Shown piece by piece: positions 4,904 through 62,520 of a stretch of DNA of 64,000 bases. The position numbers were made by a program, and so were the translations under genes. Location of the stretch: the NCBI GenBank assembly GCA_964016885.1, contig OZ024745.1, forward strand, positions 55,118,001-55,182,000. The letters are read 5' to 3'. This stretch comes from Eledone cirrhosa (lineage: Eukaryota). A model generated the notes under the pieces. That model worked only from the letters and a program-made list of their open reading frames with translations. It made no database searches and was not told where the DNA came from. Every line of letters begins with the position of its first letter. The stretch's first letter is position 1.

Positions 4904-5254
4904 TTATTAATATACATTCTTACATTGTGTATTATTAATTTCATTGAATATTAATGAGAACATTTAGGAATAGATCGTATATACTAGTTACAAATTAATA
5001 GAATACTTTATAATACAAATCGTTCCTGATCGACTAAAATGACAAACCGTTTGATTACAAATGATTTGAAAGAGGCACATGAACATTACCGTAATGTATG
5101 TCTAAACGTATAAACTAACAGTAATCTTTAATACCATCCATGGACAAAAACGGACACAAATCACCGGTAAACATATAAATCTGCAGCGATCGATGTAGTA
5201 AAAGCAATGATCAAGAGCTCACCAAAATGTTATAGGTCATTAAACAATAAATGT

Positions 5255-5441
5255 AATAATTGTTTATACATTTGGCACAAGGACAGTAATTATCACAGTA
5301 TATTACTGGTACTTTATTTTATCGACCCCGTAAGGATGAAAGGCAAAGTTAACCTCGGCGAGATTTGAACTCAGACCATAAAGGGACGTAACTCTTTGCT
5401 GCAAAGCATGGCGTCCGACCCTCTACCAATACTTCCAATCC
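5255..5441 (-). mobile_element. SINE family A
   Basis: TACTGGTACTTTATTTTATCGACCCCGTAAGGATGAAAGGCAAAGTTAACCTCGGCG...GCATGGCGTCCGACCCTCTACC. Confidence 0.9.
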
Positions 5442-6949
5442 AAGGGCATATGTACTTTTAAACATATCTGGTGTGTGCAATAATAGCCTGCTTATATCAG
5501 ATAAATATTTAAGGATATTGGGACTACATACTTCTTCACATACACAATATATATCCAATTGTAAATATTGTTTCCATTGAATTCCCTAGCAAGCAGTTTA
5601 TATATAGACAGTTGAAATATGATAGCATACGTTTTAAACAATTCCATATAGTATTGTTTGCCAAAGTGATTCAAAAGTGTACAACCTAAAACTGAACGCT
5701 GTTTATGTATTCAATAAAATCGTAAATTTACCTCTCGATCAACATCGGTCACCAGCCAAAGGCAATATCAATATTTATAAGAGAATAAGTGAAGTTCGTG
5801 CCACGTAAAAAAAAAAATCCAAGTAGCAATAAAATCAAGTCACGGGCACGGAAACAAGGGTTCAGTTTTTGGCACCGCGTTTGACATTAATTCTTATGAG
5901 CTTCAGGCAATTGTACATTTCTATTCAATAAATGTTAACCTTAAATTATTAATTAATGCCATTGACTTCATTTCAGATATAATTTAGTTTTCGTTTCAAG
6001 CAGAATGAAACATTTAAGTGGGGTAAAAGAAGCTAATAATATGTTTTTATTATACTTACAAATTTATTGTTATTTACATTTTTTACATTCTTATTTATTA
6101 TATACGCTTTCCTTGTAATGTTTAGTTGTTAAAGTAACAGCCGATTGAAAACCAAATGTATGAAATCAAACAGACTTGCTTTATTTTAAGTTGTACATTA
6201 CATATATTATAAAGTTTGGCTATTATACAGAAATCCGCCTTTCTCACATATAGAGTGAGGAGGTAATTGTATAAAAGCAATGCAAACTTCAGAAGGAGTG
6301 GTAACTCAAAGGATGAGTTGGCATTATGTGAGATGGCTTCTAGCAAAAGGTTGTACACATTTAAATCTGGAATACAACTAATTAACAAACATATACATGC
6401 TTTGCCCATGTTTCACTTTAACTTTCCACCTGTCTCTTCCAGAGCCAAGTAGCCTGTGGGATATAGATGAAGAAATAGCATAGCATAATATATGTCTGTG
6501 TGTGTGAATGTGTGTGTGTATATATACATCTACATATGTATACAAACACACACACATCATATATATATATATATATACTTACTTAAAATTTAATGATATC
6601 TTTATATGCAAGCGAAATGTGAAATAAAATGATAACAATGTAGGAGGCTTTCGTCAGTGAGGAAGAGCGAGAGTAAGAAAAATGTTAATACATATATATA
6701 CGTATAATGTGTGTGTTTGTGTGTGTATTTGTGTGTTTGTGCGCGCGCGTATGTGCGCGTGCATGTGCGCCTAAATTTAGAAGTAGATAGATGTACAGAA
6801 ACGTTTATATGCATCACATCACATTCATAATTTTAACATTCGTGTATACAGTAAATAATTTTTTATACAGTTAAAAATGTATTATTTAGAAATAATATTT
6901 TGTTGCCATTCCTTTTTACAGGTATATAAATACATATATGTACGCCGGC

Positions 6950-9829: not shown

Positions 9830-9985
9830 ATAATGGTTTCTGATTTAGGCACAAGACCAACAATTTTGTGGGAGGGAACATTCGATTAAATCAACCCAAG
9901 TGCATTACTAACACTTTATTTTATCGACCCCTTAATGATACAAGACAACGATAACCTCGACAGCATTTGATCACAGAACTATGAG
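9830..9985 (-). mobile_element. SINE family A, diverged (a further decayed copy at ~10110-10300)
   Basis: TTTATTTTATCGACCCC core and TTAGGCACAAG tail. Confidence 0.7.
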
Positions 9986-16129: not shown

Positions 16130-16285
16130 AGTGATAAATCGACCCTAGTGCATTACTGGAATTTTCTTTTATCGACCCCGTTAAGGCAAAGCTAACCTCT
16201 GCAGAATTTGAACTCAGAACGTAAAGGGCCATAACTATGCCACAAAGCATGTGGTGCGACGCTCTGCCGTTACTGCCACTCCACC
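16130..16285 (-). mobile_element. SINE family A
   Basis: TTTATCGACCCCG...GGCAAAG...ATTTGAACTCAGAACGTAAAG. Confidence 0.8.
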
Positions 16286-17499
16286 ACTCTTATTATTATC
16301 ATTATTATAATTATTATAATTATTATAATTATTATTGGATTGAAAAATACATTAATATATCATCTTTTTATATATGTGAACTATATGCCCTTTCTATAGA
16401 AATCGTCAATGTAAATATTTTATTGACGTTCGGCACTTTTCTTTCATTTACCAACAGCATATGCGTTCTTACTGTTAGCTTGCTTTCCAACAGAGTTACT
16501 CCAGATGTTATTGATTTCCTTGTGAGGTTTTGTTTCTGCGGATATAATTGGTATGTGTGAGACATTCTTTTACGTTGAAAAGGCATTAAGCAACATAACT
16601 TTCAGTTATATACATACAAAGTGACGAATAATTTTATGTGTTCGGTTTCAAATATGTAATGTAGTATGCAGTGATCATTTAGTAAATTTCACGTATAAGT
16701 GTCTATGGCATTCAATTTTTGACACACTGCTGTCGAATGCAATTGAATCAAAGACAAATTTGAATTAATCCCGAAAACAATTAAGTGAAATGATTCGATG
16801 AGTTTTTAAACTTAATCCATTCACAATCCCAGATTTTCCTGAAACACTATTTCTAACATCTTGCCTGAAGCTGCATATTTAATTTTCTCCCACTTGGCCC
16901 CGATGAATTCCTTACACTTACACAGTTATCATTAAATAAATTAGAGAGCATTGAATCCCGCTCTATCCTATTAGCAATAAAATGGAATAATAAAAAAGAA
17001 TGTGAGGAAAATGTATTAGAAAGAGAATAGGAAGAAAAATCATAATAAAGAGAATATGAGATAAAAGAATAAAGAGATGAAAACGAAAAAGAAGAAAAGG
17101 GAGAAAGAGCAGAAAAAGATACAGAAAAAGGAGAAAGGGAAAAAGAAAAAAAAGAAGACAAGACGAAGAAAAACAAAAGAAAAATAATAAAGATTTCTAT
17201 ATTCACAGCACGGGCTTACGAAAGAACATCTTTTAAAAAACTCCTCTTCCTATTTTAAATGATGTTAATAGCTTGAAAAATGCAAAATAGAATACGCTCC
17301 AGTATCATGGTCTAGAACTACAATGATTGCTAGCTCTCGGATTGGAGTATGGAACTCGCCCTAGCTAAACAATTCGCAACACCTAAAACCTACCCTCACA
17401 ATAAAGCAATCAGTCGTGTCGGGTGGAGCAAGACAAACAACTCATCCGCAAATGCGATATCCTCGTGCTGCTATATGGCCATGGGCATATAGGAAATAT

Positions 17500-20595: not shown

Positions 20596-21090
20596 CTGCA
20601 TATCCACCGGCGTTGTGTATGCTCTCCGGTGTTCCCTTTGGGGGTCTTTATATGTCGGACAAGCGGGACGCCGTATGGCGGACCGTTTTGCTGAAAATTT
20701 GAGGGACATACAACTCGGTTTGGATACTCCTGTCGCCCGTCATTTCTGTTCTCCTGGTCATTCTTCCCTACATGTTTCAGTCCTGGGTGTCCTTTTACAT
20801 TATGGATCACAGGCCTCGCGCACCAGGACTGAACAAAGTCTGATTCACCGTCTTGGGTCCTATTCCCATCTTGGACTCAACTCACCTCCCCAATTTCTCT
20901 AATACCCCGTCCATTATCACACCCCTAGTTTCCTATCGCTTTCTCGTTGTTCATAGCTTCGAGTGTGTGTGCGCACACACTCTTTTACTCACATATATAC
21001 ACACATTTCTTCTTAGCTTCGTACGAACCTATAATAACACACACACACACACACTCATGCTTTATTTCTGTTTACCTTTTACATGTATAT
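20591..21090 (+). mobile_element. 5'-truncated Penelope-like element: GIY-YIG endonuclease end plus 3' tail
   Basis: CISTGVVYALRCSLWGSLYVGQAGRRMADRFAENLRDI...PVARHF...EQSLIHRLGS...GLN; homologous to 41450-41729; bounded by (TA)n on both sides. Confidence 0.9.
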
Positions 21091-21292
21091 ATATATATAT
21101 AGAAGAAGTTAGTATGCCCGTGGGTACTAAGTACCCCCGGAAGTACATAGGTTGTCTATGATTTAAGGTTGTTCTATGGTATCAATTTGACATACCAGAA
21201 CTATAATATTAATATAAGCAGAACAAGCAAAATTCAACCAATTTTTTAAAATAAATTAAAAAATATAATTTAAATATTTACCTATTCTTTTC

Positions 21293-21374
21293 GCCCTTAC
21301 CGATCGGTTTCGCCTTGTAAAACACTAGAAATCCAATGGATTTCTAATGGAAAATCAAGGCTCATCAGAGAAGC
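21293..21374 (-). ncRNA. Type I hammerhead ribozyme, long helix II insertion
   Basis: Minus: GCTTCT-CTGATGA-GCCTTG...CAAGGC-GAAA-CCGATCGG-TA-AGGGC; palindromic helix III; GUA site. Confidence 0.85.
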
Positions 21375-21774
21375 ATTTTCCTTTCCTAGGGCTAAAGACC
21401 CAGGAACGATAAAATATATTGTTATCTGCCAGCTAGCACAGATCCAAAAGGCCGAAAAATGACCTGTACGCGAACTACCCGAGGTGAAAGCGGGAAAAAC
21501 ATAGACGTGTTGTCTATCTCGTTACTAAAAATAGCAGCTAAATAGAAACAACAGATTTGTTCTCAACATAACGGAGTGTAATAGAAGAAGTTAGTATGCC
21601 CGTGGGTACTAAGTACCCCCGGAAATACATAGGTTGTCTATCATTTAAGGTTGTTCTATGGTATCAATTTGACATACCAGAACTATAATATTAATATAAG
21701 CAGAACAAGCAAAATTCAACCAATATTTTAAAATAAATTAAAAAATATAATTTAAATATTTACCTATTCTTTTC

Positions 21775-21856
21775 GCCCTTACCGATCGGTTTCGCCTTGT
21801 AAAACACTAGAAATCCAATGGATTTCTAATGGAAAATCAAGGCTCATCAGAGAAGC
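21775..21856 (-). ncRNA. Type I hammerhead ribozyme (second repeat unit)
   Basis: Same sequence as 21293-21374, shifted by 482 bp. Confidence 0.85.
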
Positions 21857-22137
21857 ATTTTCCTTTCCTAGGGCTAAAGACCCAGGAACGATAAAATATA
21901 TTGTTATCTGCCAGCTAGCACAGATCCAAAAGGCCGAAAAATAACCTGTACGTGAACTACCCGAGGTGAAAGTGGGAAAAACATAGACGTGTTGTCTATC
22001 TCGTTACTAAAAATAGCAGCGAAATAGAAACAACAGATTTGTTCTGAACATAACGGAGATAATAGAAGTTAGTATGCCCGTGGGTACTAAGTACCCCCGG
22101 AAATACATAGGTTGTCTATGATTTAAGGTTGTTCCAT

Positions 22138-22139
<2 letters not shown>

Positions 22140-22224
<85 letters not shown>
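22140..22224. repeat. (TA)n microsatellite (another at ~22435-22542)
   Basis: Direct reading. Confidence 0.97.
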
Positions 22225-22545
<321 letters not shown>

Positions 22546-23392: not shown

Positions 23393-23920
23393 TAACTACC
23401 AAAAAAAAGTTCTCGCTCTACATTGCTGAATACAATATATGTAATCTGAGTTTTTCGAATATTGATAATAATATTCGATTCGTTTGCAATTATGCAAACA
23501 CCCTCTTTTAAGCCATGTTAGTAGAATGAGCCCCTCATTCTTGCTCTTGTGATGGCATGATACAGTTTATTATTCTCCTGCCAACTGTCAGAGCTAGTAA
23601 AAAATAGATGATATTTTCTAAAATATACAGTGACTAATCAGCCCGATTAGCATATTAACAGACTCGCTGATCAGTCAGATCTGCATATTACCAGATGCAT
23701 TGATCACCCAGATTTGCATATTAGCAGATAGGCCAGTCTGTTTACATGCAAAAACAAGAGCAATAATGAGCGGCTCATTCTACTGAGATGGCCTAAAAGC
23801 GGATGTTTGTAAAATTGCAAACGTATCGAATATTATTATGAATATGCGAAAAACTCAGATTGCATTTATTGTATTCAGCCATGAAGAGCGATGGCTTTTT
23901 TTATTTTGTCGGGGTAGTTA
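23393..23920. mobile_element. MITE/foldback-like element with ~155-bp imperfect terminal inverted repeats
   Basis: 23393-23550 is the imperfect reverse complement of 23755-23920 (ends TAACTACC...GGTAGTTA); non-coding interior with short subrepeats. Confidence 0.8.
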
Positions 23921-23959
23921 TTTGAATATGGAAAAGCCGGCCATTAATCGCTCGTATAC

Positions 23960-24310
23960 ATTAGACTGCCTGGCCTATCTTCTGATATGCAAATCTGGTT
24001 GATCAGTGGATCTGTTAATACACAGATCTAACTGGTCAGCCAGTCTGCTAACATGCAAATCAGTCTGATCAGTCATGTATATTTTAGAAAATATCATATA
24101 TGTTCACAAGCTCTGACAGTTGGCAGGTGAACAGTGAGCTGTACTGATGAAGGCTGATACCCAGAAACATTATTGTCTGCAGTTCTGTTCGCATGCCAAC
24201 ACAAGAGCAAGAATGAGGGGCCCATTCTACTAACATGGCTTAAAAGAGGCTGTTTGCATGATTGAAAACGAATCGAATATTATTATCAATATTCGAAAAC
24301 CTCAGATTAT
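23960..24310. mobile_element. Second, inverted partial copy of the 23393-23920 element carrying a hammerhead
   Basis: Reverse complement of ~23440-23740 with an extra ~48-bp segment at 24144-24191. Confidence 0.8.
24129..24190 (+). ncRNA. Type I hammerhead ribozyme with long bulged helix I
   Basis: GAACA GT GAGCTGTA-CTGATGA-AGGCTGATACCCA-GAAA-CA TTAT TG-TC-TGCAGTTC TGTTC; 8+5 bp helix I, GUC site; helix II weak/atypical. Confidence 0.7.
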
Positions 24311-24334
24311 ATTTATATATATGTATATAAAGAG

Positions 24335-36983: not shown

Positions 36984-38045
36984 TTCATATATACAATATA
37001 TGCTATTTTCCTTGAATGATCTGACATTAGGCGAGGAATATTAGAACAACAATTTTAATTTTACAATCTCCTAACAAATGTTCAAATCCCATTTAAATGA
37101 CAGCATATTATGCTTCGGGGTCCTGGTCTATTACGATATAACGAAAATATATGAGGATGTCAAAATAAAGGTTCATATCTGTTGAAGAAATGAATATCAT
37201 TCTGGTCTGTGGATGGTTAAGGAGAAAACACAACACAACACAGGGGAAAATAATGCAAACGCTATTACTACATTTTAAGGTGTATATCAATAAATCAGCA
37301 AATAGAATTTCAGTTATATTTATGCTTGCATTGAAATATTAAGTAATTTCACAACGATATGTATATATTATTTACTAGTGCTTTTTCGAAATACGATAGA
37401 CTTCATATATTTTACTGAAGTGTTTTGTAGAGTTACATAGGCTGATCACGTAAAATGATCATTCTTATTATCACCTTTGAACCAGCAGCAATGTTTTAGT
37501 AGTTGTTGTCATCTCATTCCATTTCTGACATCAATTATATTAGAAATTGTCCTGGGAAAAGGCAGCATAGACAGTTTTCCATCAAGATATACGTAATATA
37601 ATAATCTGAACTGTTGGCTTTATACACTTATGCATGATTTGTATCGTACAGACACATACACAGCAAAATTATGGAACCTGGGCATTTTCTTCCCTTTATT
37701 AATTATGTCTAATGTTACTTCTACAGAATTACTTGCAATAGTGTAACACTGTTTCTTGAATTGATACATTTCTCATGTGAACATCTATGTAGGGATGAAT
37801 GTATGACCGTATGGATGCTTTCTGATTATTCTATGTATTGTTCAAAATTTTAAGTTCAATTTTCGCGACCGTATGTAGCTTATGAAATGAAGCGCTGCTT
37901 TCATTCTCCAGGGAACCACATTCATAATATTTTTACTATGCTGGGGTTATATATCCCGTAGCTCCAATTATAATATGTATGAAACTGAACCTGTATTTTG
38001 GATATTAGATATGTAAAATCAACATCAATTGTCCGTAGTTATAAT

Positions 38046-38222
38046 TGTTTCTACGTTAGGCACAAGGCCAACAATTATCCAGTGCATTACTGGTACTTTA
38101 TTTTATCGACCCCGTAAGGATGAAAAGCAAAGTTAACCTTGGCGGGATTTGAACACAGGGCCGTAACTCTATACGTCAAATCATGGCGTCCGACCCTCTA
38201 CCAATACTGCCAATCCAACCTT
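38046..38222 (-). mobile_element. Young SINE family A copy with 18-bp target site duplication
   Basis: ATTGTCCGTAGTTATAAT at 38028-38045 and 38223-38240. Confidence 0.93.
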
Positions 38223-39694: not shown

Positions 39695-42600
39695 TTTCGC
39701 TGGCACATTTCGGCCGAACGCCACCGGCTCCGAACGCCGCAGACCCGTTTCTCGACCTGGGCCGACGACCATCTTCTTGGACGCCGGCCCCAGGGCAATT
39801 TAGCACCCTGGACGCCTTCGTCGACGCCAGCCGTAGCGCAGTAAATCGTTTCGACTTCCGCCACCGTTCCTAACGGTACAATATCTCACGGGGCGAACTC
39901 CTCGCTCTCCGCTCCCTCCTTAGCCGAGATGACATCGTCATCAAACCGGCGGACAAGGGAGGCGCCGTATGGTGTGGCGCACGGACCTCTACACGGCCGA
40001 AGCACTCAGGCATCTCTGTAACCCCCTCTTCTACCGCCCTCTACCCTCCGATCCCACCCCCCTCTACCAACAACAAGTCTCCTCCACCATCAAAGACCTT
40101 ATCGCCTCCTCCCTCCTCCCCCCACCACTTCCCACCTCATCGTCCGCACCCCCCGCACCCCCACCATCTACTTCCTCCCCAAACTCCACAAACCCGACAA
40201 CCCCGGCCGCCACATCGTCTCCGCTTGCAACTGCCCCACCGAACTCATCTACGCCTTTCTCGACTCCATCCTCGCCCCCCTTGTCACCAACCTCCCCTCC
40301 CACATCACGGACACCAACCACGCCCTGCGCCTTTTCGACTCCTTCACCTACCCACCCGGCCCACAGCCCTTCCTCTTCACCCTAGACATCAAGTCCCTCT
40401 ATACCGTCATCCCCCCACGCCGACGGCCTACGCGCCCTCAAACACTACCTCGACCTTCGCCCCTCCCCCATTCCCTCCACCCCCACCCTCCTTCGCCTCG
40501 CCGAGCTGGTCCTCACCCTCAATTGTTTCTCCTTCTCGGGTGAGTTTTACCAACAGGTCACGGGGGTAGCCATGGGTACAAGAATGGGCCCGAACTATGC
40601 CAACATTTTTGTTGGCCATGTTGAGGCCCAAATCTTTGCCCAGTACACCGGCCCCACGCCCGAACTGTACGGTCGTTACATTGACGACTGTATCGGAGCC
40701 ACGACCCTCACCCGAGAACAGCTCGACTCCTTTCTCTCCTTCTTCTGCTCCTTCCACCCCTCCCTCCACCTCACCCCCTCTATCTCCACCACCCACGTCC
40801 ACTTTTTAGACATCTCCGTCGCCTTCGACCCCTCCCACCACTCCCTCGTCACCTCCGCCTTCTTCAAACCCACCGACGCCCACTCTTACCTCGACTTCAC
40901 TTCTTCCCACCCCACCCACACTAAACTCTCCATTCCCTACTCCCAACTTCTCAGGATCCGCCGCCTCTGTAGCCGAGATGCTGACTTCGAGTCCCAGGCC
41001 CTTTCCCTAGTCAGCCATTTCATCCGCAGAGGTTACCCCCCCCCCCCCCCTCTCGTCCACACCGCTCTCACCCGCTCCCGTGATGTGTCCCGCTCCACCA
41101 CCCTCACCCCACGCCACCGCACACCCACCCACCGTATCCCCTTCCCCATCACCTACCACCCCTCCATCTTACCCCTCCACCGCACCATCCGCCGCCTCTT
41201 CCGACGCCTAGAGTCCGACCCCTCCACCTCCCACATCTTCGCAACCCCACCACTCCCCTCCTTCAAACGCGCACGCAATCTCCGCACCCTGCTCGTCCAC
41301 AGCTCCCTACCTCCCAACCCACGCGATGTCCCCCCCCCGGTTCCTTTCCCTGTTCTAGGCCCCGCTGCAACACCTGTCCCCACATCACCAACACCACCAC
41401 CTTTCAGGGCCCCAACGGACACTCTCTCTCTGTCCGGCATGCCTTCCGCTGCACCTCCTCCAACCTAGTCTACGACTTATGTCGGACAGACGGGACGTCG
41501 CCTGGCGGACCGATTCACTGACCACCTCCGGGATATTCGTCTCGGTGGTAGTTCCCCACTCGCCCGCCACTTTGGTGGCCCTGGACATTCCGCACGCCAT
41601 CTCACAGTCTGTGGCCTACTCCAATGCCACGGAACACCCGCCAATCGCCTTAGAGTCGAACAAAGAACTATCTTCATCTTACAGACCCACACTCCCCCCG
41701 GCCTGAACTCCCCACCCTTATTCCTTTAGCCTTCGACCGCCCCCCTCCCCCACACTTATCCCCCACTAACACCACTAACACACCCCTCCTTTTCACCGCC
41801 CACCCCACAACTAACAATACTAACACCTCCACTCCACCCCTCATCCGACCACCCTTCCCCAGCTAACATACTAACATACCTCCCTTCTTCTCCTCCTCCC
41901 CCTCCTTATCACACGCACACACCCACCGGCACATATATACACGCGCTCACACTAAACACACACCCTACTACCAACACTAACCCTCACCGCCACACCTCTC
42001 ACCCCCACATCTCCATCCCACCACCCCGCAACTAACCTGCTAACACCCCCTGACCCCAAACACACGAACACACGCACCCACTTCACCACCCACCCCACAC
42101 GCAACTAACATCACTAACACCCCAACCCCACACACACGTACCCATACACTCTCGTACACCACCAACTCTACACACCCTACCACCACTAACCCCCACTCAC
42201 ACCTGCATTCAACCCTTCCCCACCTCCCGTATACTAACACCCACTAACACCCCTTCATCAAACTACACACACACCAGTACACCACACTCCCTCCATAGAA
42301 CTACACACACCCTTCTCTCCCCGCTCCACCCACACCCTCGCTCCACACTCACTCATCCCACTAACATCTCTACTAATACACACACACACACCCTCCTCAC
42401 TCCAACGTTCACACCTACCCATCCTCGCCCCTTTACCATTCCACCGACTGCTGCTATGCCCTCTGTCCACCTCCCAGCACAAACAGACACACAGCACTCC
42501 CACTGCTTGACCACTTCCTGTTGCGCGCGCACCCCACATCTCTCCTCTTCCGACCATCTCTTCATGGAATACTCGTATGTGGAACTTGACCACCACAGAA

Positions 42601-43345
42601 TCCACTAAACCTCATAGGATTTTACCAACTTTTCAACCATCCTCTTACGGAATCACCTATATAACTCACCCACACACACACCCCAAAAACATTTTTTTCT
42701 CCACACGCCACCTACACCCACAACATGCTTAAACCCCACACACACGTGCTTTCCACCACATATTTACACCCTCAGCCTCCTGATTCCTCTCCCCCCCACC
42801 CCTCTATCCACACACGCACAGACACTCCGACCTACAACCCCTCCCACACACACCTCTTCCTGAACATGCAACCCCGTTCTTCCCCCAACCCTTACTTTCA
42901 TATACACACACACACACACGTACACCTACACACACACACCACCTTCAGCCCTCCCCGCTCGGACACCCCGTCTCCCTCTCCACACTCCACCCGCCACCAC
43001 CCCTACACACCCCACACCCTTCCACCACCAGTTTTACCCCCCTTTTAATTTCAGTTTATTTTGATCATGCTTTTATATTTAATTTTATTTCATTCCTTGT
43101 ATTTTGAACATGCTTTATTTTTATCTTTATTTTTTATTTTTTCATTCGCACCGTTTCCTTTCGCTATATGTCTCTCCACCACTCCCCTACACACCCTTTG
43201 AACTCTGTTCCCACACACTTCTCACCTGAGGAAGGGCTTATGCCCGAAACGTCGTTCCCCACCACCACCCCACTCTCCAGAGCGTGAAATTAATAAACAT
43301 TCGTTGTACTGCCTCTCTGTTTTGTTCCTGTTCAATTTTTTCCAT
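39695..43345 (+). mobile_element. Penelope-like element (Neptune-like), 5'-truncated, frameshifted RT + GIY-YIG, long C-rich 3' region ending in HHR and AATAAA
   Basis: DIVIKPADKGG; LDIKSLYT; GVAMGTRMGPNYANIFVG; YGRYIDDC; FLDI; IPYSQLLRIRRLCS; CxxxxCxxC linker (PCSRPRCNTC); NLVY/YVGQTGRRLADRF..H; coding ends TAG at 41729; ends at (TA)n. Confidence 0.95.
43222..43256 (+). ncRNA. Minimal hammerhead ribozyme in PLE terminal repeat
   Basis: AC-CTGAGGA-A-GGGC TTAT GCCC-GAAA-CG-TC-GT; palindromic ACGT helix III; helix I only ~2 bp. Confidence 0.7.
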
Positions 43346-43515
43346 TATATATATATATATATATTATTTACATAATACACAACATAAATAGCTCTGTACT
43401 ATCAGTAGGGCCCTCTTCTTTCCTTTACGGAAATACATAACACACAGACGACACAGACACACACACACACGCGCGCGCGCGCACACACACACACACGCGC
43501 ACGCACATACACACT

Positions 43516-43770: not shown

Positions 43771-43805
<35 letters not shown>

Positions 43806-43828
43806 GTATATATATATATATATATATA

Positions 43829-43886
<58 letters not shown>

Positions 43887-43887
43887 T

Positions 43888-44228
43888 AGAAAGTGAGGTT
43901 TTTTCACAAAATGAAAAGAAACGAGGTCTCCTACACGACTGAAAGTATAAGGAAAAAAGATGAAATCGAAAATGCAATTGGTGTCTTTTTTTAAATGTAT
44001 TTATTTGGTTCCTTTAGCGGTTTCGCAGTTCTTGTGCTTTTCAAAAGTAGAATTGAGATGGAGGGTTTGTGGCTTTTCTCATATCTGGTGAGAGAAAAAC
44101 CACAAACCCTCCATCTCAATTCTACTTTTGAAAAGCACAAGAACTGCAAAGCCGGTAAAGGAATCAAATAAATACATTTTAAAAAAAAGACTCCAGTTGC
44201 ATTTTCAATTTCATCTTTTTTCCTTATA
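43888..44228. repeat. ~135-bp inverted repeat (43946-44080 / 44092-44228) of the 22225-22435 family, each arm with a mutated U3-A8 hammerhead
   Basis: Arms are imperfect reverse complements; TTGAAAA-GCAC...TGC-GAAA-CCGC-TA (minus) and TTGAAAA...TGCAAAGCCGGTA (plus, GAAA lost). Confidence 0.85.
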
Positions 44229-44279: not shown

Positions 44280-47200
44280 GGTTGTTTTGGACGCCTCAAC
44301 AATGCAGATGTGTAAATCTCCAGGTAACAGAATCAGGTGGTAATGAGAGAGATGTAAGAGGAAATGTAGAATGAGACGTATAGGGTGTAGTGGAACGTTG
44401 GAAAGAGTGTAAAAATAATAACACGAGATAGAGTTACCTAGGAAGTGATTTAATTTTACTTTATTTCGGATTTCGCATCCATCAACTGGGGATTTTCGGA
44501 GAGGAAAGCTTTTAGTCGGAGAGGGGTCACATGTGGCCTCTGTTGTCTATCGTGTGTGTACAACTGAAATACTTTGTAGGGCGCGCATGCGTCGGAATAG
44601 CTGCTGTCAGACAAATGTCGAGGCAGGTCTTCTATACTAGAGTAGTGGGATGGTATCGTGTCAGTGCGTACGCATCTTCGATGCCAATTTCTTTTATTCA
44701 GCCTTTGATACTGGCAGGTGTGGTGTAGGTATTGGTAGTCTGCCTGCTTGTTGTCTGTCGCTCGATAGATGGTGCATCCGATATACACACAATAACAATC
44801 GCTCGATTGCTACTGTGTATGTGTGTGTTGTTGTTTCATTTGTGTACACCAGCTATCTCGTCTCATTTCTCTCGGATCGATTATTTCTTTGTGGTCCGAG
44901 GCGTTTGATCCAAAGTGCTTCCTTGATTCTTAAAGTGCCGACGTTGCGTTCCGTCGCTAACACTGTGACAATAGGCCTTCCGTTTTTGTTTCAGCATTTG
45001 ATTATGTGTTTCGGGAAAGACGAGGCCCTGGTGTTGATGTGCCCCTTGATCCGGACATGTAGTGCCTGGATGGTGCTACCAATGTAGAAGTCGTTATAAT
45101 TGTCACATTCTAGCTTGTATACGACGTACGTGCGTAAGCAACAGGTATTTTGGTGCATCGCACAGTTGGTGAGAGAACACGCGTCAACCAAATTCTCGGG
45201 TTTCCTGGAGAGGAATCTCCGTAGGGAGGGGCCCGAGTGGGTCAAGTGGATGTCGAGGCCCTCCCTCCGTATGGCCCTGCGGTTAGCGTTGGTGGTTTTC
45301 TCGCTCAGGTCCGGGATTTTAAGGGAAGCACTAGCCTTGCGTATTTCTCTGCCTCTTGCATCTGGTGTCTCTTACTCTGCTTGTAAATGAGGCTGGGTAT
45401 TCGTTTGTCTCCAGCATCCTGTGGAACCGATTGTATGAGCGACACCACTCACGGGATCGCTGCATTTATTTTTAATCCACGTGTTCTCGTTCGTGATGTA
45501 CCCTCTTTTAGCACTGTTAGGTAGGGCAGATTTGTAGTGGATGAACAATCCCTGCAGGCTGCCTTGTGGTAGAAGTTGGCGTTGATCCCTCCTTGCTCCG
45601 TGATGTTGATTCGGACGTCGACGAGGGCAAGGGATCCGTCGTCGTTGGGGTGTTCAACACTGAAGTCAATATTCTCGTCCGTGTTGCTGAACGTCTCGTA
45701 AATCTCGTTCGCCATGGAAAGATGTGAAGATGAGGATGTCGTCCACGCATCTTGAGAAGAAAGCGACGGCGTTGGCGTTGCAGGTGTTGAGTGCCTTGCG
45801 TTTGAGGCTGTCCATGTGCGAGGTCGCTAGCACACTCGACAGGCTTGAGCCCATGGGTAGCCCTGAGGTCTGCCGGTATTTTTGGTCGAGAAAATTGAAA
45901 TATGTGTTGTCAACGTCGACGGATAGGACTTGGTGAATGTCAGTGGGGGTGAGCCCGAAGCAGTGTAGGTTGGTAGATTGAACACATTCCGTCAGTATAT
46001 CGACGGCCGGGAACGCCGTGACAGAGGTGTAAAGAGTGACCACATCAAGGCTGAAGGCATACCTGTTAGCCTTTCGTGTGTCGAGATCCATCTGATGTAG
46101 GCGCTCCAACAATTCCTCGAAGCTGTTGACGTCTCCCGGCAAGGTGTTCAGTGGAGTTTAAGTATTCTGGCTAGGAGCCATGACATTTTGTAGAGCGGTC
46201 CCTCCACGCTCGATACAATAGGCCTGATCTTCAGGTCGGGTCCATGTTTGTGTGTATTCACGAGGTGATAGAAGGCGGGTAGTCTGCTGTTCCTCTTGAG
46301 GAGGTTGTTTCTAAGATTCTTCGGGAGTTTCCGCCGGCCGCAGATGTTGGTCCAGGCGGCGTTGATGTGCTCCTCGATCTGCGCGGGAGTGATCGTATGA
46401 CTTTAGAGTAGAGGCTGTCATCGTCAAGGTATTGGAGGGCCAGGGTGTTGTAGGCCTCTCTGCTGATGATGCAGAATAAATTTCTCTTGTCGGTGTATGG
46501 GGGGGGGGGGGTAAATGAGGTTCCTCGATTTCAGGTTGGAGAGGGTGGAGAGTTGAGATTTAGTGAGGTTGTATGTTGTGCGTGTGTGTGTGTGTGTTTA
46601 TGTAGGATATTAGAGATAGAGTGTTTAAACTTGATGAGTTTAGTGTCGAGTTAGTGGTTGGTGGTTGGGGGGTGGAGTGGGTTGTCGAGGTGGTAAGTGG
46701 GGAACTTGGGGTGGGTTGTGTGGGTACTGTCATTTTCCGTAGTGCTGTTGATGGCGGTCACCCATTTAAATCGGTAAGCAGCTCGGCAGAAGTTGGCTTC
46801 GATGTCGAGTTTAAGTCTGTCGTCGAGCCGCTGTGAAAAGATGAACCTGGGTCCGAGGCGTAGGAATTCTAGCTTGTCGTTCGTGGGGGTCCGGTTAGGT
46901 CGGTGACCATGTGCGTCGCTTCGTTGAGGTATGGCTCGGTGTTGGTGGATGCGGCTGTGGCGGTTGTTATGTTGGTGTTTATTATGTGATCCTCGTCTGT
47001 CTGTTTGTTAGTGTCGATGTTTTCGTTGTGGAGTTTAAGCAAGGTCCACTCATATTTCCGCTTGAGCCGTTTTGTTTCATGTTGGACTCCGGAGTGGTAG
47101 CACTGGACGATTGCTTTTGTGGTTTTAAGGAGCAAGTCATTGGGTGTTAAGTGATGCGTCAGCTCTGAGAGTGTCCGTTTATGGATGTGTAATTGACGGT

Positions 47201-47400
47201 GGAGATGTCGCAGAATCTGTTTGATACACGAGCGATGTATGCGGTTAGCGGTGTTTTAAAAGGTTAGTGTACGTAGACATGCTTGTAAACGGGTGTTCCT
47301 TATGGTGACGGGGATACCATCGTTCTTTACGCAGCGTTTTAGGAAAATAATTTGACAGACAGCTTTGGCCCATTTCTCCGACAGTCTATTCGTGTCTGTT
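44280..47400 (-). mobile_element. Penelope-like element, near full-length, frameshifted (different family from 39695-43345)
   Basis: FLKRCVKNDGIP N-terminus; IRPIVS; FSLDVVTLYTSV; YRQTSGLPMGSSLS; SRCVDDI; FSVEHP...LALVDV; VVYKLECDNYNDFYIGSTIQALHVRIKGH (GIY-YIG). Confidence 0.93.
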
Positions 47401-48661
47401 CTCTCTCTCACCCCCTTTTATTTTATCCTAATAACTTATTTTAGTTATTGCTCGCCCTAACGCTAATGCGAAGACATATACCTATGATTGGTAGCAGACA
47501 ACTGGCGATGGATATTACCCTCTTTCGCCCGTAACTTTTATTTTCATTATATATATATATGTATATATGTATATATATACAATGATTGATAGAATTTGAA
47601 AAAGGGAGGGAGTTACAACATATTTAAATGTAGAACTATATATTTGAATATAAAGTATATGTAGCATATTATATATTGAATTTTATCCCATCTTTATTAT
47701 ATTATATATATCTATATACACGTACATAGATATACACTCGTAGAAACAACTACCTTTGATCATGTATGATATAGATTTGGCTGGTCGGATTCATGGAGCA
47801 ACCGAAAATGTAATATGTGTTAGAAAGAGAAGCCTGCAGTGGGAGAGAATAAATGAGTATATATGATGATTGATCCTTCTCTAGCAGTATAGTTTATTAT
47901 TATAACATACCAGTCCAAATAAGAAGCCTTTCGCCTTCTGGCCATAATGAGGTTACACATGGGAATTGGCCATGTGGATATATTAACTCAATATATTTTT
48001 GGTCCAATTCACCAATCGTTTCTTTAAGAAAAAAAAAAAAATGCTGTAGCCTGAAATGGAAGCGAGATACTACTAAATTGTTCCTCTTCCCAACACTTCT
48101 ATTCATCTGTATCCATTTTGGTATGTCTTAACGTACACTCCATCCATTCATCTTACGGCAAAGTGCTTCTGCATTCTTTTATAAGGTTTTATTTAATTCC
48201 TTCTTATATATATATATATACCACTATCCTTCACCTTATATCCCTTTCCCAATTACTCTCCTCTCCCACACTCCATATTATTGTCTGTGGGTTTATATGT
48301 TCATGAGTGTAAGTATGTGTATGAGTGTATTCGTGAATATAAGTTTGTATGTGAAGTTGTTTCTCGCGATCTCTTGCACCATTTTCCTCATTATTTCTCG
48401 CACGCTAAGACAAAACCACAGACATTTACGTTATAACTGAAATAATAATTCAATCATTAATTTCCGTCCATATATTTTCTTTCCTTCCTTTCTGCAATAC
48501 TACATTTCGCCGCGTTTCCTTTTAGCTTCCATGTTTTGTTTATAGATTCATGAGATTGTTTAGTTTAGTAGGTTTTGTTTGTATATATTCTTTATTGCAT
48601 CTTTTGATCGATCGTTTCGCCTCCCATTCGCTCTCTCATCTCTCTATATCTCTATATGCAT

Positions 48662-49544: not shown

Positions 49545-49754
49545 AAGGGCGGTGGATTGGCAGTAAAGGGCGGTGGATTGGCAGTATCGGTAGAGGGTCG
49601 GACGCCATGCTTTGACGTATAGAGTTACGGCCGTTGCCATTCTGAGTTCAAATACCGCCGAGGTTAACTTTGCCTTTCATCCTTACGGGGACGATAAAAT
49701 AAAGTACCAGTAATGCACTGGGTATTTGCTGGCCTTGTGCCAAACGTAGAAACA
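49545..49754 (+). mobile_element. Young SINE family A copy with 16-bp TSD and duplicated 5' end
   Basis: ATTATTTGTGTGTCAC at 49529-49544 and 49755-49770; AAGGGCGGTGGATTGGCAGTA twice at the head. Confidence 0.93.
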
Positions 49755-50037
49755 ATTATTTGTGTGTCACGCAATATGTATTTCTCTTTCCCTCTCTCTC
49801 TCTCTCTCTATCTTGTACACAAACACGCGTGCGAGAGACAGACTTCACTGGTGGTTAGTCTTCTTTATTAGTTCAAATATCTAATGAAGTATATTAATAT
49901 TACTTCTGCTATGTCCTCTTTGCTTCGGTGGAGAACCTTAACTATTTCATAACTTTCTAGGGAACTTTCTCGCATTTGGCGGCGTAAAACTGGTCTAATG
50001 CGCTATATATATATATCTATCTATATATATATATATT

Positions 50038-50734: not shown

Positions 50735-50783
<49 letters not shown>

Positions 50784-50810
50784 CACAAATCATCTCCTTA
50801 GATTGATAAC

Positions 50811-51750
<940 letters not shown>

Positions 51751-52460: not shown

Positions 52461-52552
52461 ACGAAGGAAATGTGGTAAGGAACCAGGTGGACCATAACGC
52501 ACCAAAGTACTCAATACTTGAGGTAGTAGAGTGGGTAATAGGAACCAGTAAG

Positions 52553-52646
52553 ACCCCGACAGCTGAGCTCAAGCCGTTTCGACGGCTAATTCTGGACTAA
52601 ATGAAAATTTATCCTGGTATTTAAATAGCCGATCTTCTCAAGGGGT
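52553..52646 (-). ncRNA. Hammerhead ribozyme, U3-A8 variant (left arm)
   Basis: Reverse complement of 53792-53885. Confidence 0.8.
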
Positions 52647-53791
52647 AATTCCATATATGGTCAAAGTGATTGTCAAAAATCAGTAGTAATTCTGTGGTTG
52701 CAAATTAGTAGGGGAGATGGTGGCTAAACCTGCCAGTAGGAGAAAGAGGGGAGGGGGTGGAGTAGACCCAATCAAGCGTTGGTAGTGCCAGCTACAGCTG
52801 GGCATGAGGTCAAAGAAGATACAGGGGAGGGGGAGGGGGAGGAAGTCGGAACGGTAGGTAGAACAATGGGGGGTAGAAATAGGAAAGAAAAAAAAAAAAA
52901 TACTGAGAGTGAAGAAAGGCAAATAAGTGTAAAGAAAAGTAAAGTAAAGTAAAGCTTAGACCCCGGATACTTTCCCCCTTTTTCCGACCGCTCCCACTAT
53001 TCTCTGTGCCCTCTATATTTCTTAGTGGCACATGCCTTATTTTTTCGTTTCAGTATTTCTTGCTTCGCTTTTCTTCTGGGCGGGGTGGATTCTGAATTTA
53101 TTTCTCCGTATTCTACCTTTATTTCGTACGAACTTTCATGTAGCTTGTTTTAGATCTTTTAGAGTTAGCATTAGTATATATTTTTCTCGGGACTCAGAAT
53201 TATTATCTCGTACAAGTTCACTTTGCTGCACTGGGTCGTTGCTGGCCCGGGATGGAAACCTTTATTGTTTATTTCGTGGTAGTCTCTTTAGTATTTTGGC
53301 CCCTTTTGTTGACCCGTCACCGTATCATTTACGTACTTATACCTCTTAAAAGGGTCCTTGCCTTAATCGTCCCACCTAGTTCTCTTACTTATTTCCTTAT
53401 TTATTCATTTATTTATTTTTTTACTTCTTTCTTTCTTTCTTTATTTTATTCTCGCCTAACAATAGCCTGACACCTAGGTCGTAGAATTTAATTTACTTTA
53501 CTTTTCTTTACACTTATTTGCCTTTCTTCACTCTCAGTATTTTTTTTTTTCTTTCCTATTTCTACCCCCCATTGTTCTACCTACCGTTCCGACTTCCTCC
53601 CCCTCCCCCTCCCCTGTATCTTCTTTGACCTCATGCCCAGCTGTAGCTGGCACTACCAACGCTTGATTGGGTCTACTCCACCCCCTCCCCTCTTTCTCCT
53701 ACTGGCAGGTTTAGCCACCATCTCCCCTACTAATTTGCAACCACAGAATTACTACTGATTTTTGACAATCACTTTGACCATATATGGAATT

Positions 53792-53885
53792 ACCCCTTGA
53801 GAAGATCGGCTATTTAAATACCAGGATAAATTTTCATTTAGTCCAGAATTAGCCGTCGAAACGGCTTGAGCTCAGCTGTCGGGGT
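53792..53885 (+). ncRNA. Hammerhead ribozyme, U3-A8 variant (right arm)
   Basis: ACCCC-TTGAGAA-GATCGGCTA...TAGCCGTC-GAAA-CGGCT TGAGCTC AGCTG-TC-GGGGT; GUC site after 53880. Confidence 0.8.
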
Positions 53886-53895
53886 CTTACTGGTT

Positions 53896-53933
<38 letters not shown>

Positions 53934-56518: not shown

Positions 56519-56730
56519 TAATAAACGACACAATATAATTATTCAATTACCCAAGGCTTCACGAAGTTAGTCGATTCTAGCAGAGGCGTCTGAAGTCGTT
56601 CATGAGATAGAAATCTTTAATATCTATTAAAGATTTCTATCTGATGAACGATTTCAGACGCCTCTGTTAGAATGGTCTGTCTGATTTCGTGAAACCTTGG
56701 GTAATGGAATAATTATATTGTGTTGTTTAT

Positions 56731-56732
<2 letters not shown>
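56519..56732. repeat. ~105-bp-arm imperfect palindrome made of two opposed hammerhead-bearing tails
   Basis: Centre ATAGAAATCTTTAATA TC TATTAAAGATTTCTAT; adjoining 56440-56520 matches 43365-43440 in reverse. Confidence 0.85.
56635..56709 (+). ncRNA. Type I hammerhead ribozyme, extended helix II
   Basis: TTCTAT-CTGATGA-ACGA TT TCAGAC...GTCTGA TT TCGT-GAAA-CC TTG GG-TA-ATGGAA; mirror copy on minus strand has core mutated to CTCATGA. Confidence 0.8.
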
Positions 56733-58700: not shown

Positions 58701-59414
58701 AGGATAAGGAGGAGAAGGAAGCGGAACAAGTGAATGAAGTGGAACAGAAGACGGATGAGGTGCTTAATCAGAATTCTGGTGGTGTCGTTAATGATGATGA
58801 ATGTTACGTAAACAATAATATTTTTAATATTAGTAATACTATTTTTAAAAATCATTGACTAAATTCTCATCTGTATCTTCTTAATTCTACTTTATATATT
58901 TGCTCAAATACACACACACACACACCCACACCCACACACAGACAGACACACACACATACACAGACACACATACACATATGTATTTATGTAAACAAAGAAA
59001 GAGAGAGAGGGGAGAGAGACAGAGACAGGGTGGGGTAGTAATATATATAGAATACCTAGAAAAGAGGAGGCTCAATATGTTCACACGTAAATATGTCTGT
59101 AAAAAGAAAATGTATGGATAGGAGTCTGATCTACAATAGTGTCAGCTTGAATATATCATAGTTAATCCCATTTAACTGAAATAGCTGATTATACCAGGAA
59201 ATAAAAAATTTAAAATTTAGACACATGGCCGGTAATTTCGAGCAGTGATACATCGATTAAATCAACCTCTTTACTTGACAGCCACTTTATTTTATCGACC
59301 CCCAGAAGGCTGAAAGGCTAATATATACTTCGTAAAGAATGTAAATACATACGGTAAATATATTTCATCCTATGCTCTACCAATTCTCCTAATTCATCAC
59401 ATTTATTGGTGGAA

Positions 59415-59575
59415 ATAATTGTTTCTACTTTTGGCACAAGGCCAGCAATTACCCAGTACATTACTGGTACTTTATTTTATCGACCCCATAAGGATGAAAG
59501 GCAAAGTTAACCTCAGCAATGGCAAGGGCCGCAACTTTATGCTGGAAAGCATGGTGTCCGATACTGCCAATCCAA
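59415..59575 (-). mobile_element. SINE family A (older copy adjacent at ~59215-59400)
   Basis: GGCACAAGGCCAGCAA...TACTGGTACTTTATTTTATCGACCCCATAAGGATGAAAGGCAAAG. Confidence 0.88.
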
Positions 59576-60363: not shown

Positions 60364-60901
60364 TCTATATATATAAAAGCGAGGAAGTGTGTGTGTCTGT
60401 GTACAACTTTGGACAGCTAAGGCTTTTACAATTCCCAACCGAATTGGACCAAATTTTCTGTGCACGTTGCAACTCTCCCTAAGACTTTTTCAAATCGACC
60501 CACGTTCAGCAATAACAAATCGATAGCAAAATTATATTTTCTAAAGTGCATGATGTAAGGTAAAAATCAATCAAAACAAAATCCTTATGGGACTTTCCAT
60601 TTAAACCGTCTGCTTTCATTACACCTTTTTGTACTTTAGCAAAACTGTCTGTTTTTTTTTACAGATTTGCAACGTATATTGTCTTTAATCATTTGTATAA
60701 CTACATCCTGTTCAGTGTTTTCCTTCATTATCAGCATAGTTTTACGTGTACAAAGATTGTACGAAATATTCGTTTGCATTAATTATTGAAGACTTCTGCT
60801 TATTTTGACAGGTTGGGGACAAATAATTTTCTTCTTTTGCTCCCTAGCTGTATATTCTTAGCATAATTTCAAACCCCGGGCAACGCCGGGTATATATGCT
60901 A

Positions 60902-60902
<1 letters not shown>
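60364..60902 (+). mobile_element. Non-autonomous Helitron
   Basis: A|TCTATATATATAAAAG start; CCCGGGCAACGCCGGG hairpin then TATATATGCTAG|T end; same terminal motif type as 3406-4903. Confidence 0.9.
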
Positions 60903-60937
<35 letters not shown>

Positions 60938-61057
60938 GACTGCGTGTATATGTGTGCATGTACATGTGTATATATAGATTTATATATGTATAGATAACAT
61001 GTTCTCAACTCGTACAAAAATCCGTAGGGATCTAATTGACATTGTATAAATATATAT

Positions 61058-61097
<40 letters not shown>

Positions 61098-61438
61098 TGT
61101 ATGTATGTGTACTGTTTATTCACAGTAAAGTGATCAGTGAAAAAAAACTTGGTACATCTACATATGTATACGTGTGTGTATTCATATACATACTAGTATT
61201 TCAGTATACATATATGGATGTACATCTTTGACTTAATTGTTTGAGCGTCAGTCATACAAAAGTGAGTTACAAACGAAACGAAATTTAATTTCGTTTCGTT
61301 ATTTGTTTTTATCGTCTCCGTTGAACCGGTACTTACTCACACTCTATGCAGGTTGGTCTGCCCACTACTAATTTTCATAGAAAAAGCATATAGCGATATG
61401 TGCTTTTACGATTCTCTAGAGAGGCCGGAAGATAGGTA

Positions 61439-61483
61439 AATATTGCTGATGAGTTGTAACAACAACGAAACTAGTTCAATATT
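61439..61483 (+). ncRNA. Minimal type I hammerhead ribozyme
   Basis: AATATTG-CTGATGA-GTTGT AACA ACAAC-GAAA-CTAG-TT-CAATATT; 7-bp helix I, palindromic ACTAGT helix III, GUU site. Confidence 0.88.
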
Positions 61484-61909
61484 CCTTGTCTGGCTTTCTG
61501 GAGAATAGAGGAAAGGTGTTTCCTCAAAAACCAGTATGACTCTAAAAACCGGTTTGTCTGTGTGTTTACATACAGAATAGCTGGCCACTCACAGTAAAGT
61601 GATCAGTGAAAAAAAAAACTTGGTACATCTACATATGTATACGTGTGTGTATTCATATACATACTAGTATTTCAGTATACATATATGGATGTACATCTTT
61701 GACTTAATTGTTTGAGCGTCAGTCATACAAAAGTGAGTTACAAACGAAACGAAATTTAATTTCGTTTCGTTATTTGTTTTTATCGTCTCCGTTGAACCGG
61801 TACTTACTCACACTCTATGCAGGTTGGTCTGCCCACTACTAATTTTCATAGAAAAAGCATATAGCGATATGTGCTTTTACGATTCTCTAGAGAGGCCGGA
61901 AGATAGGTA

Positions 61910-61954
61910 AATATTGCTGATGAGTTGTAACAACAACGAAACTAGTTCAATATT
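61910..61954 (+). ncRNA. Minimal type I hammerhead ribozyme (second unit)
   Basis: Identical to 61439-61483, shifted by 471 bp. Confidence 0.88.
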
Positions 61955-62243
61955 CCTTGTCTGGCTTTCTGGAGAATAGAGGAAAGGTGTTTCCTCAAAA
62001 ACCAGTATGACTCTAAAAACCGGTTTGTCTGTGTGTTTACATACAGAATAGCTGGCCACTCACAGTAAAGTGATCAGTGAAAAAAACTTGGTACATCTAC
62101 ATATGTATACGTGTGTGTATTCATATACATACTAGTATTTCAGTATACATATATGGATGTACATCTTTGACTTAATTGTTTGAGCGTCAGTCATACAAAA
62201 GTGAGTTACAAACGAAACGAAATTTAATTTCGTTTCGTTATTT

Positions 62244-62520
<277 letters not shown>

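Follow-up and report, generated by a model that had tools for sequence, protein, structure and literature searches.

The question raised by this locus is what the tandem array at positions 61120-62251 of the window (i.e., the whole stretch of 64,000 nucleotides of Eledone cirrhosa DNA that was analyzed) represents, and how it came to lie among (TA)n repeats. Tandem Repeats Finder reported the array with a period of 471 and 2.4 copies (99%); the units showed no mismatches over the bases aligned (0/469 and 0/187), and the length of one A-run (A8/A10/A7) was the sole variation between them. An earlier note, made from the letters of the window, had described 2.4 essentially identical units of 471 bp. 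The number and the identity of the units are borne out by these alignments; a length of 471, on the other hand, applies to unit 2 and to the monomer between the two predicted cut sites (61477-61947) and not to every unit, as unit 1 has 469 bp. The same note had proposed a very recent insertion. The absence of substitutions between units is consistent with a recent insertion, although it has limited dating value because units copied from one template start out identical.

Table 1. Positions of the array, its predicted parts, its junctions and other repeats and elements in the window
Feature	Position	Strand	Remark
Whole insert	61120..62247	+	2.4 units head-to-tail; RNA sense = + (hammerhead strand); 1128 nt
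Unit 1	61120..61588	+	469 bp, A-run of 8; begins at an arbitrary point of 5' truncation, not at a cut site
Unit 2	61589..62059	+	471 bp, A-run of 10
Partial unit 3	62060..62247	+	188 bp, A-run of 7; readable to 62251 with one mismatch
Predicted cut-to-cut monomer, candidate circle	61477..61947	+	471 nt, GC 36%; two ends predicted to pair as helix I
Type I hammerhead A	61434..61486	+	Predicted cut after U61476 (GUU)
Hammerhead A, helix I	61439-45/61477-83	+	UA bulge, 3-bp extension
Hammerhead A, core	61446-52	+	
Hammerhead A, helix II	61453-66	+	
Hammerhead A, GAAA	61467-70	+	
Hammerhead A, palindrome	61470-75	+	
Type I hammerhead B	61905..61957	+	Identical to A; predicted cut after U61947
Perfect 13-bp hairpin, UUA loop	62211..62239	+	Just before 3' junction; copies at 61272-61300, 61743-61771
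Reverse-transcription start window (putative)	61303..61312	+	U-rich, ends in UAU; function inferred from (AT)n switch point
TGTTTAT, left copy of probable 7-bp target-site duplication	61113..61119	+	
TGTTTAT, right copy	62243..62249	+	Microhomology, as it overlaps TGTTT of the unit itself
(TA)n microsatellite abutting 3' end	62248..62499	.	Tandem Repeats Finder
(TA)n tract just left of insert	61045..61106	.	Probably other half of target region
Penelope-like element, frameshifted, C-rich	~39700-43350	+	DKG motif, RT, C-x4-C-x2-C linker, long 3' region
Second Penelope-like element, frameshifted	~44900-47500	-	RT + C-terminal GIY-YIG
SINE-like repeat copies	1241-1385, 5253-5443, 9833-9979, 16135-16291, 38038-38218, 49566-49761, 59413-59575		

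The unit is non-coding, the longest stop-free stretch on the circular 471 period being 60 aa, and the two unit frames tested had no Pfam match. An ORF with reverse transcriptase (RT) and GIY-YIG, by which an autonomous Penelope-like element (PLE) is recognized, is absent from the 471 period. Pfam comparison of 150 open frames (148 of the 150 longest, from a total of 288, plus the two longest unit frames) gave no sign of a host gene near the array; the matches were to RT and GIY-YIG, together with three sub-threshold chance matches. ARAGORN found 0 tRNA genes in the window.

Hammerhead cores (CUGAUGA) begin at 61446 and 61917, and position H17 is U at 61476 and 61947. Each motif combines a helix I of 7 bp, which resumes beyond a UA bulge for three further pairs, with a helix II of 5 bp (or of 4 bp with a 6-nt A-rich loop) and a helix III made of palindromic ACUAGU. 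The 7-bp helix I and the cut positions expected earlier (after 61476 and 61947) were located at both cores, where cleavage is predicted. ACUAGU had also been placed correctly in helix III; the palindrome itself is 8 nt long (AACUAGUU) and includes core A14 and the cleavage-site U17. A descriptor with the helix lengths of the array matched 2 sites in the window, as compared to 0 in 100 dinucleotide shuffles. Both motifs matched the full-length Rfam model Hammerhead_HH9 (RF02275) with 37.7 bits (E 1.3e-7), against a gathering score of 52 and with a helix III 5 nt shorter than that of the model; the match is one of fold, not of membership. The scan of the whole window at the gathering level gave 0 Rfam matches, and the exact hammerhead pattern had 0 matches in metagenome contigs and 0 in viral contigs. 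Rfam matches to miRNAs and sRNAs, which arise from AT-rich hairpins, were far under threshold and were discarded.

Here and below, comparisons with published work refer to the parts of each cited source that were available. The canonical metazoan hammerhead has a helix I of 6 bp, a helix II of 4 bp and a helix III of 1-2 bp with a palindromic loop, while the minimal hammerhead of PLEs has a helix II of 7-8 bp, a helix I of 4-5 bp and one additional base ahead of stem II (PMC4209133). The motif in the array (helix I of 7 bp, helix II of 4-5 bp, no extra base) lacks these marks of the minimal form. As its helix geometry fits the definition of PMC4209133, it is, judged by sequence, a canonical metazoan type I hammerhead, and the description of it as 'minimal' in the earlier note has to be dropped; a true minimal form occurs elsewhere in the window, at 43226. 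The cleavage triplet of the array is GUU; GUC and AUC are reported to be the best triplets, with GUU still cleaved (PMC9217987). By description, the array also resembles HHR_Amex1 of axolotl and newt, where one base pair is capped by a palindromic tetraloop, as an A-U pair closes CUAG in the array (PMC7229834). HHR_Amex1 performs poorly as a monomer and efficiently as a dimer (PMC7229834).

The monomer showed a strongly stable predicted fold on the hammerhead strand (z = -8.15; 0/100 shuffles as stable), as compared to z = -5.37 on the opposite strand, and all four hairpins for which the unit had earlier been called hairpin-rich are present in this fold. Two isolated hammerheads were predicted to co-fold as a double hammerhead (-32.4 vs 2 x -14.5 kcal/mol) with U17 paired to A14. 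In the best model fold of the full array, on the other hand, the core is inactive, with CUG paired to the UAG of helix III. The cost above this best fold was +6.6 kcal/mol for the active double, +15.2 kcal/mol for two active singles and +7.6 kcal/mol for an active single in a circle, and the probability of an inter-unit helix III was ~0 in the nearest-neighbour model, which ignores tertiary contacts. The suggestion that helix III might pair between adjacent units is plausible in so far as the active double is predicted to be 8.6 kcal/mol better than two active singles, and weakened in that the best predicted fold is inactive. As the double is favored over singles yet the best fold is inactive, these models suggest that dependence on the dimer is plausible and that activity may be low.

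Copies of the unit were sought in public sequencing runs; among 24 runs listed, 20 were indicated to contain part of the unit (representing 16 coded organisms and one wastewater metagenome), none of these 20 being an RNA run. The contigs of three runs (X1, X2 and X15) were compared with one monomer (61215-61685) at 85% likeness. Run X1 (organism A) contains 2 contigs, one of which (503 nt, depth 10, branch-free) closes on itself with a period of 471 and differs from the window by 1 substitution and 2 single-A insertions. Run X2 (organism B) contains 1005 contigs, with 495 at ≥99%, 306 at 95-99%, 165 at 90-95% and 39 at lower likeness, has the same closing joint as X1 and reaches a summed contig depth of ~2e4 to 7e5. 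Five near-fixed differences from the window in X2 indicate that organism B carries a related version of the unit. Run X15 (organism B; a small assembly of undefined kind) contains 25 contigs, one of which covers the hammerhead in unaltered form. Contigs of all three runs read across the junction 61588/61589, which shows that the duplication is not an invention of the assembler, and the unit family is multi-copy at least in organism B. Two of the circumstances that the earlier note had named as refuting its reading, an assembly artefact and a single-locus unit, are excluded by these contigs, the latter for the family in organism B. Units nearly identical to this one, if truly present in several of the coded organisms, might point to recent spread between species; the low-depth runs, including the depth-10 circle of X1, would likewise be explained by carry-over from a high-copy organism.

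One contig of X15 has 83 nt of other sequence before 61249, of which 30 letters look coding-like by eye and resemble the stretch after RT motif 4 of PLEs. This loose end is possibly a link to a helper PLE, or an insertion into one.

Overall, these data support 61120-62247 as a real retrozyme insert, as had been proposed, i.e., a non-coding and highly structured sequence with a type I hammerhead in two consecutive units, belonging to a multi-copy family with a seamless junction elsewhere. We also compared the 27 substitutions listed among the copies with the predicted fold. Eleven fell on unpaired positions, 11 kept a pair and 5 broke one, as compared to 11.0 breaks expected (P = 0.0045), for sites that depend on one another and a fold derived from the window copy itself. 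The sole listed substitution within 61439-61483 turns a U-A pair of helix I into a U-G wobble. Two-sided pair changes, which would represent true covariation, were absent among the 27. Given this absence, the non-independent sites and the window-derived fold, the pattern is supportive of the fold and does not amount to covariation.

The placement of the insert ends relative to the hammerhead provides evidence on how the array was inserted. The 3' end lies 3-12 nt past the 13-bp hairpin and ~300 nt after the last predicted cut site, not at a cut site, and the 5' end falls arbitrarily, 357 nt ahead of the first predicted cut site. Projected onto unit 1, the end of the window copy corresponds to 61308-61312, and at least 12 contigs of X2, in a listing of 13 of the 45 loose ends, exit the unit behind 61312 into (AT)n. 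The chance of finding TGTTTAT at both ends was 0.002 (G-containing junction 7-mers) or 0.014 (any of 10), for this one locus, and the pair is probably a target duplication that arose when the pairing of a few bases primed the copying. Starting from the 3' site, a linear monomer already cut would yield only ~300 nt; for an insert of 1128 nt, the template would hence have to be either circular or a multimer left uncut. The earlier reading of the locus had missed its most informative features, namely the constancy of the 3' end in (TA)n, the link to PLEs and the duplication that probably marks the target site.

Remains of PLEs occur in the same window, with RT matches at 45669-46157 (E 3e-7) and, weakly, at 40386-41465 (E 0.0099) and a GIY-YIG match at 44994-45371 (E 0.0023). 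The element at ~39.7-43.35 kb, which contains the minimal (extra-base) hammerhead at 43226, has its 3' end in (TA)n and was assigned to eukaryotic HTH_animal/RVT_1 clusters (Atlas). The C-x4-C-x2-C linker is a Neptune/Nematis motif that is hypothesized to mediate microsatellite targeting (PMC8557442). No PLE in the window is intact, the ORFs of both being frameshifted. An autonomous partner similar to the 471 unit was not found in the window, and the unit showed no similarity to the PLE ends at E up to 1. A 3' fragment at 20600-21080 (+), (TA)n-flanked and without a Pfam match, resembles by eye the GIY-YIG end of a PLE.

A relaxed scan identified 7 hammerheads in 5 elements of the window (200 shuffles: mean 0.055, maximum 1). 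In all five elements, (TA)6 is reached no more than 300 nt from the last cut site, as compared to 0.17 for a random position. An unrelated hammerhead array at 21099-22142 (-) has 2.2 copies of a 482-bp unit with 8 mismatches in 478. Both of its ends lie in (TA)n, a UUA-loop hairpin precedes the 3' junction, the monomer has z = -4.33, and the hammerhead shows a long helix II, the palindrome ACCGAUCGGU and a GUA site; the 471 and 482 units had no similarity at E up to 1. An older element of 1.25 units at 50781-51603 (-), with a period of ~655 and 15 mismatches in 164, has one hammerhead at 51136 (GUA) and sits between (TA)n and (CA)n. Single hammerhead-like motifs at 56641-56731 (+) and 22810-22762 (-) each occur shortly before a (TA)n tract; the candidate at 56641 came from the first hammerhead scan only and is outside the relaxed-scan set.

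The features tested place the array with the metazoan non-LTR retrozymes, none of them failing, with self-cleavage, the release of a 471-nt monomer suggested in the earlier note, and the circle as predictions. It shares with these elements the short non-coding tandem units, a GC content <50%, a type I hammerhead in consecutive units, a strongly self-paired monomer, a multi-copy, dispersed family (as seen in organism B), PLEs in the same genome (frameshifted ones in the window) and a probable target duplication >4 bp (7 bp in the array). It differs in its GUU site and in a unit of 469-473, slightly above the range of 150-450 bp (PMC7229834) and within that of 51-972 bp (bioRxiv 10.64898/2026.07.22.740005) given for metazoan retrozymes. 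Retrozymes have been proposed to be non-autonomous PLE derivatives that use circles (PMC7229834; bioRxiv 10.64898/2026.07.22.740005), and their repeats are described as having no conserved motif that points to an autonomous partner (PMC7761336). Likenesses to PLEs themselves include partial-tandem insertions, AT-rich or (TA)n targets, a hammerhead in the repeat and a 3' end defined by an internal start of reverse transcription near a stem-loop (the anole element PAc, PMC11167929; Neptune and Naiad, PMC8557442); unlike PLEs, the array has no ORF and a canonical rather than minimal hammerhead. Reverse transcription of PAc begins at an internal stem-loop, with AT-rich sequences as targets, and its priming in vitro needs no homology (PMC11167929), while the junctions of the array show short microhomology. 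Octopus retrozymes were not found in the literature listed, judged by title or the start of the abstract, and the available parts of the literature, supplements aside, yielded no description of a fixed 3' end in (TA)n, a priming site or an insertion site for animal retrozymes.

We consider it very probable that the array belongs to a PLE-mobilized retrozyme family and, given such a family, rather likely that the template was circular and not uncut and linear. The full explanation, i.e., that a non-LTR retrozyme was copied into (TA)n by a PLE from a predicted 471-nt RNA circle, with internal priming at a fixed site, seems to us somewhat better than an even prospect. Under this explanation, an array would be transcribed from its + strand, and neighboring hammerheads would pair via the ACUAGU palindrome and cut slowly after GUU, yielding a monomer of 471 nt for a host ligase to circularize. 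A lone hammerhead in the circle would lack a proper helix III and would leave it mostly uncut. As suggested by the junctions, the endonuclease of a TA-targeting PLE would then nick (TA)n-rich DNA, and the DNA end so freed may form a few base pairs with the U-rich stretch that immediately follows the 13-bp hairpin on its 3' side. Reverse transcription would start there, ~300 nt from the cut site, would pass two intact cut sites and would stop after 2.4 rounds, leaving identical units and the 7-bp duplication. The identical units fit a circle, but also a young homogeneous array.

The same type of non-autonomous PLE parasite could instead have used uncut linear multimers as template, with a slow or idle GUU hammerhead and no circle, a reading that we judge unlikely while granting it a sizeable chance. 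In its favor, two intact cut sites lie within the insert and none at either of its ends, and the predicted core fold is inactive. Moreover, in the anole PLE hammerhead cleavage is dispensable, uncut RNA is the main template and ribozyme-dead RNA inserts equally well (PMC11167929), and only 1/9 Xenopus retrozyme dimers was cleaved in vitro, with 8/9 remaining uncleaved (bioRxiv 10.64898/2026.07.22.740005). On the other hand, the core is intact in the window and unbroken by any listed variant in the three runs, and circles are abundant for retrozymes of coral, mussel and axolotl (PMC7229834). The 0 substitutions between units, as compared to 510/1005 contigs of organism B at <99%, would also be easier to obtain from one circle, with the caveat that organism B is not the genome of the window.

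We regard it as improbable that the unit represents the terminal repeat (pLTR) of a PLE that is autonomous and has an ORF, the locus then being a 5'-truncated partial tandem of it. PLEs do carry hammerheads in their pLTRs, form partial tandems and target microsatellites (PMC8557442, PMC4209133), and 24/57 Xenopus retrozyme families match known TEs, nearly all of them PLE ends (bioRxiv 10.64898/2026.07.22.740005). The coding-like piece in X15 also speaks for a pLTR, and the 32/45 loose ends beyond those listed leave room for it. Against it stand the absence of an ORF from the 471 period, whose junction is seamless in three runs, the lack of the minimal-type marks of metazoan PLE hammerheads, and a supported ORF junction at none of the 13 listed loose ends (45 in total).

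That an ordinary satellite grew through unequal crossing-over and carried the hammerhead along passively is very improbable. The very high summed depth in X2 could include long arrays, and local amplification of retrozyme arrays has been proposed (bioRxiv 10.64898/2026.07.22.740005); however, the 3' end into (AT)n shared by the X2 contigs and the window, the flanking 7-bp duplication and the short, dispersed 2.4-unit copy indicate insertion and not recombination. Doubling of a single unit by the assembler, for which units identical bar a homopolymer and TA repeats on both flanks might argue, is negligible in view of the end-to-start junction in contigs of three public runs.

Retrozymes are a known kind of element and the array itself is no surprise; the defined, putative priming site represents a useful new handle. 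The priming of animal retrozymes and the identity of the autonomous element behind their mobility are described as open questions (PMC7761336; bioRxiv 10.64898/2026.07.22.740005). The present locus and its copies represent a young family that targets (TA)n, ends at a defined 3' point, shows a probable duplication and is present in one organism in a very large set of copies, so that the priming site, the clade of the helper PLE and the choice between circle and uncut multimer as template become directly testable. The array moreover offers a natural GUU canonical hammerhead, predicted to be dimer-dependent, for assay. As a tentative and rather doubtful extension of the circle explanation, we hypothesize that the UUA-loop hairpin and the U-rich/UAU stretch may form the priming signal, on the RNA circle, for the reverse transcriptase of a TA-targeting (Neptune-type) PLE, that the dimer-dependent GUU hammerhead may be tuned to a low rate that lets the circle last through several rounds of copying, and that the unrelated 482-bp array may use the same signal. 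A UUA-loop hairpin was present in 2/6 of the 3' ends folded, which makes for a weak shared 3' hairpin signal. If this hypothesis is true, the family would expose the missing step of the animal retrozyme cycle.

The window contains several other repeats. A SINE-like dispersed repeat of 150-190 bp has at least 7 copies (71-92% identity). A 416-bp inverted repeat (52538-52953 / 53487-53900; 99% identity) could represent either a fold-back element or an inverted end of PLE type. The two copies of a 325-bp repeat (22225-22542 / 43774-44085; 88%) are oriented oppositely and lie next to (TA)n, and inverted repeats form a nested cluster at 23402-24316. Between TA repeats upstream of the array, a non-coding segment at ~60364-60902 (+) starts with TC and ends with CTAG after a GC-rich hairpin, which we take to be Helitron-like ends.
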